23,327 nucleotides of DNA from the IMG/VR virus record IMGVR_UViG_3300029705_000088, one strand, 5' to 3'. This DNA comes from a virus. This document shows positions 2,291 to 16,113 of this stretch, piece by piece (the stretch's first letter is position 1; each line of letters starts with the position of its first letter). The notes below the pieces were generated by a model that worked only from the letters and a program-made list of their open reading frames with translations, was not told where the DNA came from and ran no database searches. A program made the translations under genes and the position numbers.

Positions 2291-2440
2291 AACAATTTGT
2301 TCATATTCTGTTCACAATTTGTTCATACATTTTTGTTCATATTTTGTTCACAATTTGTTCATAAAATTTTTTTAAAAAATTTACAATTGTGGGCGCCCGC
2401 TCGTTTCCGGGCGTTTACCACCCGAAACGAGCGGTATTTC
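2284..2440. repeat. Inverted-orientation iteron copies (ttgttcacaatttgttcata, at least 4 copies) plus a GC-rich hairpin island (2391-2440)
   Basis: The reverse complement of the 560-860 motif is repeated here. The stem ccgctcgtttc/gaaacgagcgg is visible. Confidence 0.75.
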
Positions 2441-2564
2441 TAATGGCCACCTAATTCCGCATTTTTTATGGCAAAAACTGGATAATTCGCATATGTTTCC
2501 CATTTCCTGAAACTACCAATAGGCCAGTTCACAGAAACTTCACAATCTATTTACAGAATATTCA

Positions 2565-2593
2565 TTGACATTTTTATTAAAATATGATATAAT
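2565..2593 (+). promoter_or_regulatory. Sigma70-type promoter (attgacatttttattaaaatatgatataat variant)
   Basis: ttgaca at 2565-2570 and tataat at 2588-2593, 17 bp apart. Confidence 0.8.
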
Positions 2594-2639
2594 ATATATA
2601 CAGTAAAGGAAAGCCAATAGGCGACCAAAGAAAGGACAC

Positions 2640-2816
2640 ATGGAGATGAAAACTTATGCTTGCTCTGTTTATCACAAGAAATTTGGATGGGATGAATACT
2701 TCGTTAAAGCGAGTAATAAAGGTGAAGCGAAGAAAGAATGTATGTATCGCCTTGATAACGAGACCGATTATCCTGCCAAAGAATGGGAAATCGTGGATGT
2801 GGTAGAGGTCAAGTGA
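2640..2816 (+). CDS. Hypothetical small protein (58 aa, MEMKTYACSVYHKKFGWDEY...), absent from the ORF track because it is under 60 aa
   Basis: ATG at 2640 after the promoter and RBS aaaggacacATG. The ORF runs to TGA at 2814-2816. A perfect hairpin (gtagaggtca/tgacctctac) overlaps the stop. Confidence 0.55.
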   Translation: MEMKTYACSVYHKKFGWDEYFVKASNKGEAKKECMYRLDNETDYPAKEWEIVDVVEVK

Positions 2817-2860
2817 CCTCTACCTTGCGAAAAAAAATTTAAAAAATTTCGCAAAACCTC

Positions 2861-2889
2861 TTGACAAACGACCGGAAATGTGATATAAT
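2861..2889 (+). promoter_or_regulatory. Sigma70-type promoter with upstream TTTCGCAAAACC element
   Basis: ttgaca at 2861-2866 and tgatataat at 2881-2889. Confidence 0.8.
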
Positions 2890-2938
2890 ATATATACAGA
2901 GGAACCCAAGAGGTTCCAAGAGAAAGGAAGTAAAAACT

Positions 2939-3405
2939 ATGTTACCTAAGATGATTTGCTTTGACATGGACGGCACCCTCGCAGACCTTTACAACGTGCC
3001 CAACTGGCTTGAACAGCTTCGTGCGTTTGACCCTGCCCCGTATCGGGAAGCAGAATGTATGTGGGATGAAGAGGAGCTTGCTTGCATCCTGAATACGCTG
3101 ATTGATAACGGCGTTGAAATTCGCATTATCACTTGGCTGTCAAAGGAAAGCACTCCCGAGTATGATGAAGCGGTACGCGAAGCGAAGCGAGAATGGCTTG
3201 AAGCCCTCGGCATTCCTTACACTCACTTCCACGGTGTAAAGTATGGCGCGACTAAGGCTGACAGCATCCGCAGATACCTTGAAGAGGACGAAACCGCTTG
3301 CTCTTTGATGACAATGAAAAGGTTCGCAAGGGCTGGCACATGGGCGAAGCGTTTGACCCGACCGCGATTGATATTCTTGAATTACTGTATGCGCTCTTGG
3401 ATTGA
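2939..3405 (+). CDS. HAD-superfamily 5'(3')-deoxyribonucleotidase-like phosphatase (NT5C family); the reading frame is interrupted by a -1 shift near 3283-3294
   Basis: The product begins MLPKMICFDMDGTLADL, which is HAD motif I (DxDGT). GATKAD supplies the motif III lysine. The motif IV stretch LLFDDNEKVRKGW lies in the -1 frame and ends at TGA 3403-3405. The listed frame instead runs on to 3436 as non-homologous sequence. Confidence 0.7.
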
Positions 3406-3453
3406 GCGCATACAGGTAAATTCAAAAAAGTTTTAATACAGGAAAGAAATAGC

Positions 3454-3645
3454 ATGGAAGAAAATATTCAGTTTAAACGTTTTCAAGCAATTATTGACCC
3501 AAAATCTATTGATATCCCAATTTTTAAATGTGAAGAATGTCCATTAAATGATAAATGCCATGATGAAAAACGCATAGATGATTTTGAGCATACTTGCATA
3601 GAAGCTATCTGGCATTATATTCAAACTGGTGAATTCTTGGCATAA
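3454..3645 (+). CDS. Hypothetical small Cys/His-containing protein (63 aa)
   Basis: RBS aggaaagaaatagcATG. No promoter of its own, so it is probably co-transcribed with the upstream gene. Confidence 0.6.
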   Translation: MEENIQFKRFQAIIDPKSIDIPIFKCEECPLNDKCHDEKRIDDFEHTCIEAIWHYIQTGEFLA

Positions 3646-3677
3646 AAAATTTTTTTCAAAAAATTTCGCAAAACCTC

Positions 3678-3706
3678 TTGACAAACACCGCAAAGTATGA
3701 TATAAT
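3678..3706 (+). promoter_or_regulatory. Sigma70-type promoter with TTTCGCAAAACC element
   Basis: ttgaca at 3678-3683 and tataat at 3701-3706. Confidence 0.8.
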
Positions 3707-3762
3707 ATATATACAGAGGAAATCCGGAAGCCCAAAAGAACGGAAGAAAGAGAGAAAACAAA

Positions 3763-4035
3763 ATGCCTACTGGTAGATTTAATGAAGTTGAAGAGAATGT
3801 TGTTCTGATGGAAGTCACCGCCGAAGAGCTTAAACTTATCATTGAAAGAAGAAAAAAAGAAATTACACGCGATAATTATATGGAAGAATTTAATGATTTA
3901 ATTTCTCGGGCAAGAAAAGATGGTATTTTCTTCTGCGTTCAACGTGGAAGAGTTGCTAACGGAACAAGACTGTTTGAAGAAGATGGTCCAGAATCATATA
4001 CAGATAGATTGAATAATATTCGTATCACCTATTAA
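3763..4035 (+). CDS. Hypothetical protein (90 aa)
   Basis: Conserved leader, the same as the 1528 gene, followed by ATG at 3763. Confidence 0.7.
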   Translation: MPTGRFNEVEENVVLMEVTAEELKLIIERRKKEITRDNYMEEFNDLISRARKDGIFFCVQRGRVANGTRLFEEDGPESYTDRLNNIRITY

Positions 4036-4065
4036 ATAAAAGCCGCCTTTGGGCGGTTTTTTATT
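4036..4065 (+). terminator. Intrinsic terminator (aagccgcc ttt gggcggtttttt)
   Basis: GC stem followed by a T-run. Confidence 0.75.
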
Positions 4066-4160
4066 TCAATTTCAATTTTTGTTTCCATTTTTTGGATTCA
4101 TTTTTTCATTTCAATTCATATTTTGTTTTCATTTTATTTACAAATTTTGACTTGACTTTT

Positions 4161-4196
4161 GGGCCGGCCGCCCGCGCTCCAAGCGGCCGGTTTTTG
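4161..4196. terminator. GC-rich hairpin (gggccggccgcccgcgctccaagcggccgg) plus a T-run. It is a homologue of the 531-560 hairpin and is followed by iteron copies.
   Basis: ccggccgc/gcggccgg stem. gaacaaattgtgaa copies lie at 4195-4252. Confidence 0.6.
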
Positions 4197-4308
4197 AACA
4201 AATTGTGAATTTCAATACTTTTTTGTAAGCATTTTGTAAACAAATTGTGAAGGGAAATTTTCCCAAAATGTTTGTGCAATTTGACGAAAGATTTTTTTCA
4301 AAAACCTA

Positions 4309-4337
4309 TTGACTTTTGGCTTGATATGTGGTATAAT
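4309..4337 (+). promoter_or_regulatory. Sigma70-type promoter
   Basis: ttgact at 4309-4314 and tgtggtataat ending at 4337, 17 bp apart. Confidence 0.8.
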
Positions 4338-4371
4338 ATATATACAGAAAAGAAAGAGAGGTACATCACAA

Positions 4372-4575
4372 ATGACTAACACTAAAATTTATTTTGAGGT
4401 AGAAATTGAGGGCGTAGTAACCCAATTCAATAATTTCAATGATGCCCGTGATGAGTATAACGCGCTCATGGAATGCGGTTTCTACGAAGCCACCCTTCAC
4501 AGAGTAGAAGAAGTCAATGGCGACAAATACATAGTAGTATGGAATGACAGAAGTGCTTGCTTTTTCCCCCGCTAA
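4372..4575 (+). CDS. Hypothetical small protein (67 aa)
   Basis: ATG at 4372 with RBS aaagagagg. Confidence 0.65.
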   Translation: MTNTKIYFEVEIEGVVTQFNNFNDARDEYNALMECGFYEATLHRVEEVNGDKYIVVWNDRSACFFPR

Positions 4576-4604
4576 AAATCTTTAAAAAACTTTCGCAAAA
4601 CCCC

Positions 4605-4633
4605 TTGACAAATCGCTCAAAGTATGATATAAT
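4605..4633 (+). promoter_or_regulatory. Sigma70-type promoter (canonical class-A copy aaaaccccttgacaaatcgctcaaagtatgatataat)
   Basis: ttgaca at 4605-4610 and tataat at 4628-4633. Confidence 0.85.
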
Positions 4634-4675
4634 ATATATACCCCCGATACAGGGGGTAGAAAGAGAGATAGACCA

Positions 4676-5380
4676 ATGAACACAGAAAAGATTGACCGCC
4701 GCAGACATTACATTATCGTGCTTGACACGGAAACCGCAAACACCTTCCGCGATGAAAGAGGACAGCTTGACACAAGTAGTACACTTGTGTATGACCTTGG
4801 GTGGGCGGTAACTGATAAGCATGGAAACATCTACCGCAAAAAGAGTTTTGTAAATTCTGATATTTTCTTCCATGAAGCTGAACTGATGAAGTCGGCATAC
4901 TACGCAAATAAAATCCCGCAGTATCTCGCAGACATTGAAGCGGGTAGGCGCATTGTGGCTAATACCTATCAAATGCGCTCGGCTCTGCTGAATGATATCG
5001 CAGATTTCGCAGTTGATACAATTTGCGCGCATAACGCCCGTTTTGACTACAACAGCCTAAACAGCACAGAGCGCTGGACTACAAAAAGCAAGTACCGCTA
5101 TTTTCTCCCTTATGGAATTACAATTTGGGACAGTATGAAGATGGCGCAAAGTGTAATCGGAAAGATGCCCACCTACCGCGCATTTTGTGAAGAACATGGT
5201 TATCTGACAAAAACTGGCAGACTTTCCATGACAGCGGAAAATCTTTACAGATTCATTTCCCGCAATAATGATTTTGTTGAAAATCATACAGGGCTTGAAG
5301 ATGTGGAAATTGAAGCGCAGATAATGGCGTACTGTTTCAGACAACACAAGGCAATGCAGAAAGAGTTATGGGGGAATTAA
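4676..5380 (+). CDS. DnaQ-like DEDDh 3'-5' exonuclease (234 aa)
   Basis: Exo I is IIVLDTETAN, Exo II is AHNARFDYNSL, and Exo III is HTGLEDVEIEAQ. The leader hairpin ccccc gataca ggggg lies at 4641-4656. Confidence 0.75.
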   Translation: MNTEKIDRRRHYIIVLDTETANTFRDERGQLDTSSTLVYDLGWAVTDKHGNIYRKKSFVNSDIFFHEAELMKSAYYANKIPQYLADIEAGRRIVANTYQMRSALLNDIADFAVDTICAHNARFDYNSLNSTERWTTKSKYRYFLPYGITIWDSMKMAQSVIGKMPTYRAFCEEHGYLTKTGRLSMTAENLYRFISRNNDFVENHTGLEDVEIEAQIMAYCFRQHKAMQKELWGN

Positions 5381-5429
5381 TCCCCCATGACTACCGCAAA
5401 AAAAACTTTAAGAAATTTCGCAAAACCCC

Positions 5430-5458
5430 TTGACAAAACCGCAAAAGTATGATATAAT
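5430..5458 (+). promoter_or_regulatory. Sigma70-type promoter driving the tRNA-like gene
   Basis: ttgaca at 5430-5435 and tataat at 5453-5458. Confidence 0.8.
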
Positions 5459-5498
5459 ATATATACAGAAGAGAGGAACAAATCCTCCCCGATAATAT

Positions 5499-5605
5499 GG
5501 CAGTGAGATAGAAGCGGCTCTATTTCCATAAAGATGGCTTGAGATACAACAAATGGAAACGTTCGCCATTGGAAAACGTAGGTTCAACTCCTACCACTGC
5601 CTCCA
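5499..5605 (+). tRNA. tRNA-like gene, non-canonical length (107 nt). It has a 7-bp acceptor stem, a canonical T-arm and 3' CCA, but the middle part does not fold into a standard anticodon arm.
   Basis: ggcagtg at 5499-5505 pairs with cactgcc at 5595-5601. The T-arm gtagg-ttcaact-cctac is at 5578-5594, the discriminator t is at 5602, and CCA is at 5603-5605. A D-arm-like atag aagcggct ctat is present. I could not place a 7-nt anticodon loop with U33, nor find a CUA anticodon. Confidence 0.45.
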
Positions 5606-5636
5606 AAAAATTTTTCAAAAACTTTTGCAAAACCCC

Positions 5637-5665
5637 TTGACAAATCGCTCAAAGTATGATATAAT
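5637..5665 (+). promoter_or_regulatory. Sigma70-type promoter (class-A copy)
   Basis: ttgaca at 5637-5642 and tataat at 5660-5665. Confidence 0.85.
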
Positions 5666-5749
5666 ATATATACCGAAGCAAGAGGGCACGACCTCCAATC
5701 GGTAAAATAAAAATAATGGGTAGCGACCTACGCTGAAAGGATTGATACC

Positions 5750-6139
5750 ATGGCTACTACTAACTCTACTTCCAAGAAGCTCACTAAGCGCGACCACTTC
5801 AACACCCTGCTCCAGCTCCCCGAAGTTGCCGCAAATCCCGCACTCGTTGATTTCATCAACAACGAACTTGACCTGCTGGCTCGCAAGAACAACAGCGACA
5901 ACAAGAAGCTCACTGAAAAGGACATCGCAAATCAGGGGCTTAAGGCGGCGATTCTTGAATTCGCAACCGCGAGCGGCGAACAGCACACTGTTACCGACTT
6001 CATCAAGAACGTGCCTGCGTGCGCTGGACTTTCTCCGCAGAAGATTACCGCACTGGTTCGCCAGATGGTAGAAGATGGCAAGCTTGAAAAGGTAATCGTA
6101 AAGCGCGTATCTTACTTCCGCATTCCGGAGGGGGTTTAA
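5750..6139 (+). CDS. Hypothetical protein (129 aa), cassette A gene 1, with a possible C-terminal winged helix
   Basis: An 80-nt structured leader ends ...gctgaaaggattgataccATG. Codon usage is rich in C-ending codons. It is a paralogue of 9851..10249. Confidence 0.8.
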   Translation: MATTNSTSKKLTKRDHFNTLLQLPEVAANPALVDFINNELDLLARKNNSDNKKLTEKDIANQGLKAAILEFATASGEQHTVTDFIKNVPACAGLSPQKITALVRQMVEDGKLEKVIVKRVSYFRIPEGV

Positions 6140-6170
6140 TCCCCCTCCCCCAAGAGGGGGGACGTAATCC

Positions 6171-6527
6171 ATGAGCGAACAGGAAAAAGCAATGCGGCGG
6201 CTCGGCTTTACAGATGAAGAAATCGCCGACGTAATGGACGCAGATAAGCGCATTGACAAGGGCGAAAAACTATTTGAGCAGACCGCCGAAGAAAAGAACG
6301 CAAGTAAAGAATTGCGGCGAGCACCGCGCAAAGTCGTTGACGCATACGGCAAAGCAAGCACCAAGGAACGCAAAAGCGACAACGACAAGCAAGCACTAAT
6401 CAAAGGCATTGAAATGGCAATTTTTGACAAAGTGGAAAATCTTACCATTATCAATCCCGAACGTGAAATGGAGTTTCTTTACAATGGTAGAAAATTCAAG
6501 TTGACTCTATCTGCTCCCCGAAAGTAA
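6171..6527 (+). CDS. Hypothetical protein (118 aa), cassette A gene 2
   Basis: ATG at 6171 after the stacked hairpins gaggggg/ccccctc and ccccc aagag ggggg. It is a paralogue of 10285..10692. Confidence 0.75.
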   Translation: MSEQEKAMRRLGFTDEEIADVMDADKRIDKGEKLFEQTAEEKNASKELRRAPRKVVDAYGKASTKERKSDNDKQALIKGIEMAIFDKVENLTIINPEREMEFLYNGRKFKLTLSAPRK

Positions 6528-7610: not shown

Positions 7611-8084
7611 ATGAATATTTTAATTTTTGCAATCGCTACTGTAATTAACGTATCACTTTCCACTATCCGCGCCATTACCACCATTAAAAGCGGTAAATGG
7701 CTGTCCGCTGTGATGAATGCGGTTTGTTATGGTTTCTATCCTCTGATTGTCATGCTGACCGCGCAAGGCACCGTAGGCATTTTGGTGAATATGGCAATTA
7801 CTGCCATCGCAAATTTCATCTGCGTATGGATTATTAAGTTTGTAGAGGAAAAGGCGCGTAAAGATAAACTCTGGAAGATTGAAGCATCTGTGTGTGAGCC
7901 TTACACCGAAAGCCTTTATAATGACTTAAGAGAAAATGGAATTTCTTGTAATTATATTCCCAACATTGGTAAATATACCATTTTCAACATTTACGCAGAA
8001 ACGCAAGCGCAAAGCCTTATTGTAAAAGGACTGCTTGAAGCCAACAAAGCAAAGTATTTTGTGAGCGAAACAAAAATTCTTTAA
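7611..8084 (+). CDS. Membrane protein, UPF0316/DUF2179-like (157 aa). It has N-terminal TM helices and a soluble C-terminal domain.
   Basis: RBS ggagggataaaaaaaaATG. The hydrophobic N-terminus carries a TIR motif, and the layout resembles the UPF0316 (YebE-type) family. This family assignment is recalled from memory and is not a verified similarity. Confidence 0.6.
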   Translation: MNILIFAIATVINVSLSTIRAITTIKSGKWLSAVMNAVCYGFYPLIVMLTAQGTVGILVNMAITAIANFICVWIIKFVEEKARKDKLWKIEASVCEPYTESLYNDLRENGISCNYIPNIGKYTIFNIYAETQAQSLIVKGLLEANKAKYFVSETKIL

Positions 8085-8103
8085 AAAACTTTCGCAAAAC
8101 CTA

Positions 8104-8132
8104 TTGACAAATTCAAAAAAGTGTGGTATAAT
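8104..8132 (+). promoter_or_regulatory. Sigma70-type promoter with TTTCGCAAAACC element
   Basis: ttgaca at 8104-8109 and tgtggtataat at 8122-8132. Confidence 0.8.
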
Positions 8133-8174
8133 ATATACATCCCCGATACAGGGGATAGAAAGGAATAAAACAAA

Positions 8175-9501: not shown

Positions 9502-9579
9502 ATATATGTACCAAACAAAAGGATGCGCGGGGACGCCGAAAGCCACTCAAAAAAATTTGAAAAACTTTTCAAAAACCCC

Positions 9580-9608
9580 TTGACAAATCGCTCAAAGTAT
9601 GGTATAAT
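9580..9608 (+). promoter_or_regulatory. Sigma70-type promoter (class-A copy) driving an ORF-less structured transcript
   Basis: ttgaca at 9580-9585 and tataat at 9603-9608. Confidence 0.8.
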
Positions 9609-9614
9609 ATATAT

Positions 9615-14648: not shown

Positions 14649-14930
14649 TCATTTTTCAAATACATTCTATAAAATAGAATCCGCATCATCAAAATTAAAA
14701 TTCATACCCTATAAAAAAGGATTATCCTCTCTTTCATTTTTATTTTCAAATATATTATAGCATATTTTTTTATCTTTATCAACTCTTCTTTTATTTTCTA
14801 AAACAAAGAAAATTTTTCCAGTTGTTTCATCTATATACAATTCTTTTACTTTTCTATGAGGCTGCTTCGCAACCTCTGATAAACCTGAATGATAATCATT
14901 TTCACTTAATTTTACAAAACCGACTTCCAT
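14649..14930 (-). CDS. Hypothetical protein (93 aa) containing two in-frame TAG codons, consistent with amber being read as sense
   Basis: Strong RBS aaaaaggagaattcaaaATG. The frame is open from 14930 to TGA at 14649-14651, apart from TAG at 14709-14711 and 14667-14669. The track truncates this ORF at the first TAG. Confidence 0.55.
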
Positions 14931-14995
14931 TTTGAATTCTCCTTTTTCACTTCAGTTTTCCGCCCCTATCAACAGAAAAAAATTTTCTATAAGAA

Positions 14996-15033
14996 ATTTA
15001 TGTTCCAAGCGATAGCTGGAACATAAATTTCGC
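14996..15033. promoter_or_regulatory. Perfect palindrome (aaatttatgttcca agcgatagct tggaacataaattt) upstream of the minus-strand gene, a candidate operator
   Basis: 14-bp exact inverted arms. Confidence 0.5.
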
Positions 15034-15059
15034 TTTGTTAATTATTTAGTTTTTAGTAT

Positions 15060-15145
15060 TATTTAGATATAATATGAAAAATTACCCTTTTTTCCTTTTT
15101 ACTAACTATTAAAAATTGCCCTCACTAACTATTAAAAATTACCCT
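15060..15145. repeat. Three copies of the 24-bp motif (plus form ACTAACTATtAAAAATTrCCCTtt; minus form AAAGGGTAATTTTTAATAGTTAGT)
   Basis: Copies lie at about 15064-15084, 15091-15113 and 15124-15145. Confidence 0.75.
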
Positions 15146-15146
15146 T

Positions 15147-15830
15147 TTATTTCTTTTTACTATTATATACTAAAGATACATTTAATAATTTTTTCTTTGG
15201 TACTTTATTAATATAAATGGTTTCATAGTCAATTAATTTTGAATTATATAATAATTCTAAAGCGTGATTAATTATATCATAAGCTCTCTAATTATTTTTT
15301 ATATATATACCTATATGTTCTGCTATTTCATTCAAAGTAAAAATATAATTTTCCTACTATTTTAATCTTTTATTCTAATCTTCTTTATATTTATATTTCT
15401 AAACTAAATAAATATAAATTTTAATAATATGTTCCCGACAGTTATCCTATAAATATTCTAAAGTTGCTAAAGGAATATCTAAATAAATATTTTCTTTTAC
15501 TGGCAAATAATAATCTCCATTCTCTTTTTCCACTAAATACCCCTAATCTTTTAATGACTTCAAATGCGCTCTTAATGTTTTTGGACTTTTAATTTTTAAT
15601 TTTTCACACATATCTATTTGTTTTGGAATAATTGATTTCTTTACTACTGTTTCATATACTTCATAAGCCACACCCTTATCATCTTTTTTACAAACTTTTT
15701 CTGCTATTGAAATAGACTATAACAATCCATACAATTCACCATCTAATGTATTTGTATTTAAAAAAGTTTCATAATCTAATGTAGTATCCGCAGGAAACCT
15801 TTTTTCAATCTAATCTTTTGATTTTACCAC
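15147..15830 (-). CDS. Double winged-helix DNA-binding protein, RepA/replication-initiator-like (about 227 aa); the frame contains 8 in-frame TAG codons and no TAA or TGA
   Basis: RBS GGAGG, 7 nt, then GTG at 15830. The frame stays open to TAA at 15147-15149 apart from 8 TAGs. The translation carries two clean winged-helix motifs, MCEKLKIKSPKTLRAHLKSLKD*GYLVEKENGDYYLPV and FTLNEIAEHIGIYIKNN*RAYDIINHALELLYNSKLI. No ORF of at least 60 aa is called here in any frame. Confidence 0.6.
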
Positions 15831-15849
15831 AAGGAAACCTCCAATCTAA

Positions 15850-16065
15850 ATTTTACTAACTATGAAAAATTACCTTTCTAGTCGCACAATTATTTCAATT
15901 TCATTTATTTATATTTTACCTTTTTTGTCCAATATTTTTAGGTAATTTTACCTTTTTTAAAAGTAATATTCTAATAATATTTCTATTAAAAAATTAATAA
16001 AAATATTACTTACTAACTATGAAAAATTACCTAAAATTTTACTAACTATTAAATTTTACCCTTTT
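15850..16065. repeat. At least four further copies of the 24-bp motif family, between the divergent minus-strand operon and the plus-strand promoter
   Basis: ttttactaactatgaaaaattacctttc at 15851-15878, weaker copies at 15905-15960, then copies at 16007-16030 and 16035-16062. Confidence 0.75.
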
Positions 16066-16084
16066 CTAATTAACAATAACTCTA

Positions 16085-16113
16085 TTGACATTTATAAAAA
16101 AATATGATATAAT
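16085..16113 (+). promoter_or_regulatory. Sigma70-type promoter, class B
   Basis: ttgaca at 16085-16090 and tataat at 16108-16113. Near-identical to the 13214 promoter and leader. Confidence 0.8.

Follow-up and report, generated by a model that had tools for sequence, protein, structure and literature searches.

A single-base deletion probably inactivates a stand-alone HAD phosphatase gene in one clonal phage lineage

In this work, we propose that the gene at 2939-3436 of a viral sequence of 23,327 nt (IMG/VR record IMGVR_UViG_3300029705_000088; the whole stretch is called the window here) is very probably an ordinary loss-of-function allele, created by a genuine 1-bp deletion in a probably dispensable early HAD phosphatase gene and carried by one clonal lineage of an uncultured gut phage. 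An earlier note on this DNA had recognized that the gene is split between catalytic motifs III and IV and had left three explanations side by side, namely an indel introduced by sequencing, inactivation to a pseudogene, or programmed -1 frameshifting; the pseudogene option is the one supported by the deletion relative to 11 intact alleles, by its recurrence on at least 24 contigs and by the loss of invariant residues. The intact gene would encode a 155-aa stand-alone Mg2+-dependent HAD phosphatase transcribed from its own consensus early promoter, and the loss of one G from the Trp121 codon (3299/3300) would put the gene out of frame after motif III and before motif IV. The resulting product would retain motif II together with the nucleophilic Asp of motif I and the Lys of motif III, and would gain 45 unrelated residues, while losing about 35 native ones, with the fourth core strand, the motif IV Asp-Asp, the short strand 138-139 and the C-terminal helix.

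The listed open reading frame (2939..3436; this and all other features of the gene lie on the + strand) encodes 165 aa identical to protein P0025, of which residues 1-120 are native HAD sequence and residues 121-165 an out-of-frame tail. It is preceded by a strong early-type sigma-70 promoter at 2861..2889 (TTGACA-17-TATAAT, agreeing with the consensus at 12 of 12 positions and with a TG ahead of the -10 hexamer) and by a Shine-Dalgarno-like AAGGAAG read from the sequence at 2924..2930, 8 nt 5′ of ATG 2939. Translation of the three forward frames shows that the frame from ATG 2939 codes MLPKMICFDMDGT...GATKADSIRRYLEEDETA, and carries motif I DMDGT (2963..2977, with the nucleophile D9 and D11) and the K-containing motif III GATKAD (3245..3262, K106), as the earlier note had read them, with the motif II region IITWLS (3125..3142) between them. 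It then continues as CSLMTMKRFARAG...NSKKF up to TAA 3434-3436. By translation and comparison with relatives, the read-through part (3299..3436) is unrelated to the family, as the note had said of the run to 3436, but it comprises 45 codons (121-165) rather than the 48 given there; the family profile correspondingly matches P0025 only up to residue 123. The -1 frame is closed upstream by TGA 3280-3282, the 5′ limit for a productive frame switch, and is open thereafter, reading RGRNRL-LFDDNEKVRKGWHMGEAFDPTAIDILELLYALLD, encoding LFDDNEKVRKGW...ALLD and stopping at TGA 3403-3405. This frame holds the stranded remnant of the gene (3301..3405, L122-D155 plus the natural stop), including motif IV FDDN with D124 and D125 at 3304..3315, so that the acidic pair, at 3307-3312, is absent from the listed reading frame. 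The claim that the DD motif and the natural C-terminus lie in the -1 frame thus holds, and relatives read the same end in a single frame.

The break was located by aligning the genes as DNA, whereby the window and four frameshifted contigs (L001-L004) were compared with 11 intact loci (L005-L015), which carry four of the intact proteins, 155 aa long and 94-97% identical in protein sequence. The intact loci read GC(T/A)TGGCTC, and the window and the four contigs read GCTT-GCTC; GCTTGGCTC is found in 8 of the 11 intact alleles and GCATGGCTC in L006-L009, and the window and L001-L004 have GCTTGCTC. The TG at 3299..3300 is what is left of the Trp121 codon TGG after deletion of one G, and this missing G is the sole frame-changing difference inside the gene. 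With it restored, the gene is 468 nt long and its 155-aa protein is colinear with that of each intact allele, the pattern of a frameshift null allele, in which a single indel relative to intact orthologues can be reversed to recover the colinear full-length product. The earlier note had placed the switch point within 3283-3294, in a GAAAC stretch, and had suggested alignment to homologues as the way to find the exact indel; this alignment puts the break 5-16 nt further downstream, at 3299/3300, and the first 'L' of the 'LLFDD' read in that note is the leftover of the Trp121 codon.

The base call at 3299/3300 is drawn from concordant assemblies. Index records of the exact 165-aa product (P0025) fill 36 blocks and correspond to 24-25 contigs, assembled by JGI, ENA (k141 contigs) and Logan and reaching 186,545 bp in length, and the deletion is present in every one of the at least 24 contigs with this haplotype. 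Over the gene, the contigs L001-L004 match the window exactly, and their identity to it across the whole aligned part, from window position ~78-95 (L004 from 2397) to ~6436, is 99.98-100%, which indicates one mutation in one clonal strain, seen repeatedly through different assemblers and pipelines. Because three assembly sources show the same deletion, on no fewer than 24 contigs, and the lesion context is only a GG dinucleotide without a homopolymer, an assembly artefact is unlikely and the deletion is probably a real allele. Some of the 24 contigs may come from related samples, two JGI sample numbers being close, so that the independence holds for assembly and not necessarily for biology. 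Single-base indels are a classic type of sequencing error, and assemblies of this strain do disagree elsewhere, with a second 1-nt indel, in a CC dinucleotide, in the sister contig L004. However, the reading that the phage has TGG and that the consensus dropped one G would require the same mistake in all contigs of the haplotype across the JGI, ENA k141 and Logan pipelines, at a site without a homopolymer, and we consider this explanation, the first of the three in the earlier note, improbable. Pattern scans for both alleles in IMG/VR and JGI metagenome contigs gave 0 matches, and as JGI contigs bearing the allele exist, these scans say nothing on allele frequency.

Two further differences among these contigs were observed. 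The L004 contig (JGI 3300022654), otherwise identical to the window over 2397-6437, lacks one C of the CC at 5812-5813, which breaks the 129-aa reading frame 5750-6139 (+) there; either indels truly segregate in this strain, or some assemblies hold indel errors. In addition, the window differs from L001-L003 over its first ~80-95 bases; all three are identical to it only from ~78-95 onward, and the window may start at a variable junction or an assembly end.

A search of 5.8 billion proteins with the hand-joined sequence returned 1054 relatives, and the closest (P0001-P0023; 151-155 aa, 93-97% identity) contain ...RRYLEEDETAWLFDDNEKVRKGW...ALLD in a single frame. The resemblance of the stranded part to a HAD protein is therefore not a matter of chance, since more than 1000 homologues exist and the closest are read through in one frame. 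When 1.84 billion cluster representatives were searched with the profile, 913 matched at E up to 0.001; the 150 listed are mostly ~150-160 aa long, and the intact family amounts to 913 clusters at 50% identity, mostly metagenomic. Megablast of 2600-3700 against 50,697 GenBank phage records gave no match; the phage is without a close relative among sequenced ones, and the nearest homologue in a GenBank phage is an intact gene with 49% protein identity in phAss-1 (OQ749652.1, locus L016, 4001-4465), a human-gut phage of the 'Caudoviricetes code 15 clade', which reassigns TAG (PMC10607447). Because this phage is filed under a 'code 15' clade, alternative genetic codes were also considered; they are irrelevant here, as the break is a missing base rather than an in-frame stop.

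All the curated models that were matched score the family below their cutoffs. PF00702 (Hydrolase) gives 21.5-21.9 bits against a cutoff of 26.4, yet 47 of 53 relatives match it at E <0.01, and the family is therefore best read as a divergent branch of the HAD superfamily. PF25109 (HAD_PNKP) gives 20.3-21 bits against 27.6, with 44 of the 53 relatives matching at E <0.01, and the best NCBIfam match, TIGR01681 (HAD-SF-IIIC), gives 20.6 against 35.75. The earlier label of an NT5C 5′-deoxynucleotidase finds no support in this comparison: PF06941 reaches 13.0-13.2 bits against a cutoff of 24.8, over residues 5-46 only, and matches 2 of the 53 relatives at E <0.01. Known enzymes behind this label are the mitochondrial and cytosolic 5′(3′)-deoxyribonucleotidases (PF06941; 4mwo, 3bwv) and, in phages, those of PHROG 2643. 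Among PHROGs, matches with E 2e-7 to 4e-6 were obtained to phrog_420 (unknown function), 415 (polynucleotide kinase, E 7e-7) and 2643 (5′-3′ deoxyribonucleotidase), and by hhalign the family profile aligns with PseT of Cronobacter phage GAP32 at 96.6% probability (E 7e-10, 31% identity), with DxDGT and FDD in register. A profile search of PDB sequences returned two chance-level matches only. By these profile comparisons the family is best classed as a divergent stand-alone HAD phosphatase whose nearest sequence match is the T4 Pnkp-type 3′-phosphatase domain, rather than as a member of NT5C. It shares with the T4 Pnkp/PseT 3′-phosphatase domain (PF25109; 5uj0, 2ia5, 1ltq) the HAD core and the order of motifs I-IV, but unlike T4 Pnkp it is a stand-alone protein of 155 aa without a kinase domain, and in the structural model an additional insert of ~30 residues, which forms two short helices, separates strand 1 from the first long helix. 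A PNKP architecture with a fused kinase was considered and rejected, as the protein stands alone at 155 aa and no kinase Pfam domain was found in ten longer relatives. One relative, P0203, is a HAD protein fused to a T5orf172 domain.

The AlphaFold2 model of the intact relative P0003 (pLDDT 93.4, pTM 0.88) has a Rossmannoid alpha/beta core. DMDGT occupies residues 9-13 after strand 5-9, T65 and the motif II region around it lie at the end of strand 60-66, and K106 provides the motif III Lys. In the alignment of 53 relatives, D9, D11, T65, K106, D124, D125 and N126 are invariant and correspond to HAD motifs I-IV; M10, G12 and the whole stretch from G103 to S109 are invariant as well, and S68 nearly so. 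Foldseek against PDB places HisB-N (2fpr), the T4 Pnkp phosphatase (5uj0) and GmhB (4pnh) at the top and human mdN 13th. The capless HAD phosphatases HisB-N and GmhB (4pnh, 2gmw) are the best matches and of similar size (~155 aa), with E-values of 1.7e-5 and 2.1e-4, but the identity is only 12-17% and the TM-scores are modest (0.56-0.59). Taken together, sequence and model characters indicate that the family is HAD and that the window allele is a broken member of it.

In HAD enzymes, the essential catalytic Mg2+ is bound by the motif IV aspartates, and the central sheet includes strand 4. The part removed by the frameshift corresponds in the P0003 model to strand 120-123, helix 127-131, the short strand 138-139 and helix 146-152. 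Because the Mg2+ ligands of motif IV and a strand of the central sheet are lost, the 165-aa product should be inactive; judged from this motif loss, it is almost certainly without activity and probably misfolded or unstable. The strain has been seen in many samples, so the phage evidently propagates without the enzyme, and the gene would be a dispensable accessory early gene. That the strain is widespread despite the lesion fits dispensability, although some use for the truncated product is possible.

Programmed recoding, the third explanation in the earlier note, would be a -1 ribosomal frameshift, there proposed on the GAAAC stretch, or transcriptional slippage, giving the full phosphatase conditionally. 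The shift needed is indeed -1, the stranded 3′ part is intact and ends at its natural stop, and the frameshift of a second lineage described below likewise needs -1; as in dnaX and the G/GT genes of phage tail chaperones, two overlapping frames stand in a -1 relation. A productive -1 shift is possible only in 3283-3303, the frames overlapping by 18 nt (3283-3300), and the elements that accompany such shifts in dnaX and G/GT were not found there. No 0-frame heptamer of the slippery X XXY YYZ type occurs between 3271 and 3310, which spans the interval from TGA 3280-3282 to the FDD codons; the sole canonical heptamer in the reading frame, AAAAAAG at 3424, lies past the natural stop. Four downstream segments fold with minimum free energies of -11 to -16 kcal/mol, no better than shuffled sequences (z +0.05 to +2.1; pseudoknots lie outside this folding), and runs of one base near the site do not exceed 3 nt, a point against transcriptional slippage. 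Comparison of the gene in related phages, also suggested in the earlier note, showed that a recoding layout is not shared: each of the 11 close intact alleles is in a single frame, as are 119 of the 120 listed matches, those 119 covering 93-100% of the query, and the second broken lineage (L018/L019) is interrupted at another codon, so that there is no conserved site. We therefore regard programmed recoding as extremely unlikely.

Two ways in which the broken gene might still serve the phage were weighed against simple loss of function. In one, the TTG at 3298-3300, itself created by the deletion, would start a 35-aa C-terminal peptide that complements the N-terminal fragment. Such a reading frame exists (3298-3405), in frame with LFDD...ALLD, and a Shine-Dalgarno-like AGAGGA (3283-3288) lies 9 nt before the TTG, but AGAGGA is also present in the intact alleles L005 and L010-L012 and so was not selected for this role. 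Moreover, the N-terminal fragment would bear a 45-aa foreign tail, the allele is without later adaptation, all its copies being identical, and we know of no precedent for a HAD core made of two pieces divided at strand 4; a split enzyme is hardly credible on these grounds. In the other, the truncated protein with its new basic tail would have a selected non-catalytic role, for example by using the nucleophilic Asp and the Lys that it still has to trap substrate. The allele does belong to a strain seen in many samples, on contigs of up to 186 kb, but the tail is simply what conserved coding sequence yields when read out of frame, the 90% cluster of the product has a single member and thus gives no sign of evolutionary persistence, and with two core strands lost in the model a stable fold would be unlikely. 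We give this role next to no likelihood. There is also a very slight chance that the gene is still active at a low level, through an occasional -1 shift within 3283-3300 or re-initiation at TTG 3298 yielding a little functional, possibly two-piece, phosphatase; if so, the effect in this widespread clonal strain of a gut phage would have been to lower the output of a constitutive early enzyme, not to abolish it.

Loss of function by a single deletion also agrees in its apparent age with the pattern of substitutions. Over codons 1-120, the repaired window gene differs from the intact alleles by 12-21 synonymous and 0-4 non-synonymous changes, and since the differences are mostly synonymous the family appears to be under purifying selection. 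Over the stranded codons 121-155, it differs from L013-L015 by 3 synonymous and 0 non-synonymous changes; as this 3′ part has not yet decayed, we infer a recent mutation, and it would be limited to a single clonal lineage.

Other members of the family are broken too, and the profile search of cluster representatives revealed relatives with native N-termini and foreign tails. The DNA behind one of them, P0186 (L018/L019, that is Logan ERR4564743 and ERR4564742; gene at 962-1315 in L018), reads GCA AAA GAG AGT GGC where relatives have A-K-R-E-W, and its -1 frame goes on as KREWLEKYNFPADKCHF...LIDDNKKVRDGW...ALD*, with the rest of the protein intact. This points to an A5 run shortened to A4 at the K83/R84 codons, a call made by comparison with the protein sequence of relatives, and to an independent frameshift in a distant family member. 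In another, P0136 (L020), the 3′ part has been replaced. Disruption that recurs at different places is the pattern of a dispensable gene and not that of a conserved recoding site, and it suggests that these phages can do without the gene.

Around the gene, small ORFan genes follow one another, each preceded by a promoter cassette nearly identical to the others, and the promoter at 2861-2889 belongs to this series of early-promoter cassettes repeated across the window. The intergenic cassettes, of ~70-140 nt, lie at ~1403-1537, 2824-2933, 3636-3772, 4574-4642, 5606-5674, 8073-8162 and 9546-9614, and most are 78-96% identical to at least one other copy. Such surroundings are typical of an early, accessory, mosaic region and fit dispensability. 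Perfect TTGACA-17-TGnTATAAT promoters are present in at least the cassettes 2824-2933 and 3636-3772 and, separately, at 2565-2593. The gene between cassettes is swapped in relatives, the one downstream of the HAD gene encoding 63 aa here and 73, 74 or 83 aa in L005-L015; this arrangement suggests cassette-mediated mosaicism. Elsewhere in the window, the reading frame 1875-2240 (+; 121 aa) passes the Pfam threshold of T5orf172 narrowly (21 bits, cutoff 20), and an AT-rich stretch of ~1.2 kb (~14930-16092) has only three short reading frames (42-43 aa), many inverted repeats and five copies of a ACTAACTAT(G/T)AAAAATTACC-like motif, and could act in regulation or as an origin of replication. A search of the whole window with Rfam at gathering thresholds, together with a tRNA search, found nothing.

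In conclusion, the gene should be annotated as a frameshifted HAD phosphatase pseudogene, neither as a 165-aa protein nor as an NT5C nucleotidase, and for the window itself the finding has little import beyond that. The intact family falls under every curated Pfam and NCBIfam threshold tested and is without a solved relative detectable by sequence; it would represent an unnamed branch of stand-alone HAD phosphatases near the Pnkp phosphatase domain. Its repeated, independent disruption across lineages suggests that the gene is dispensable for these phages.
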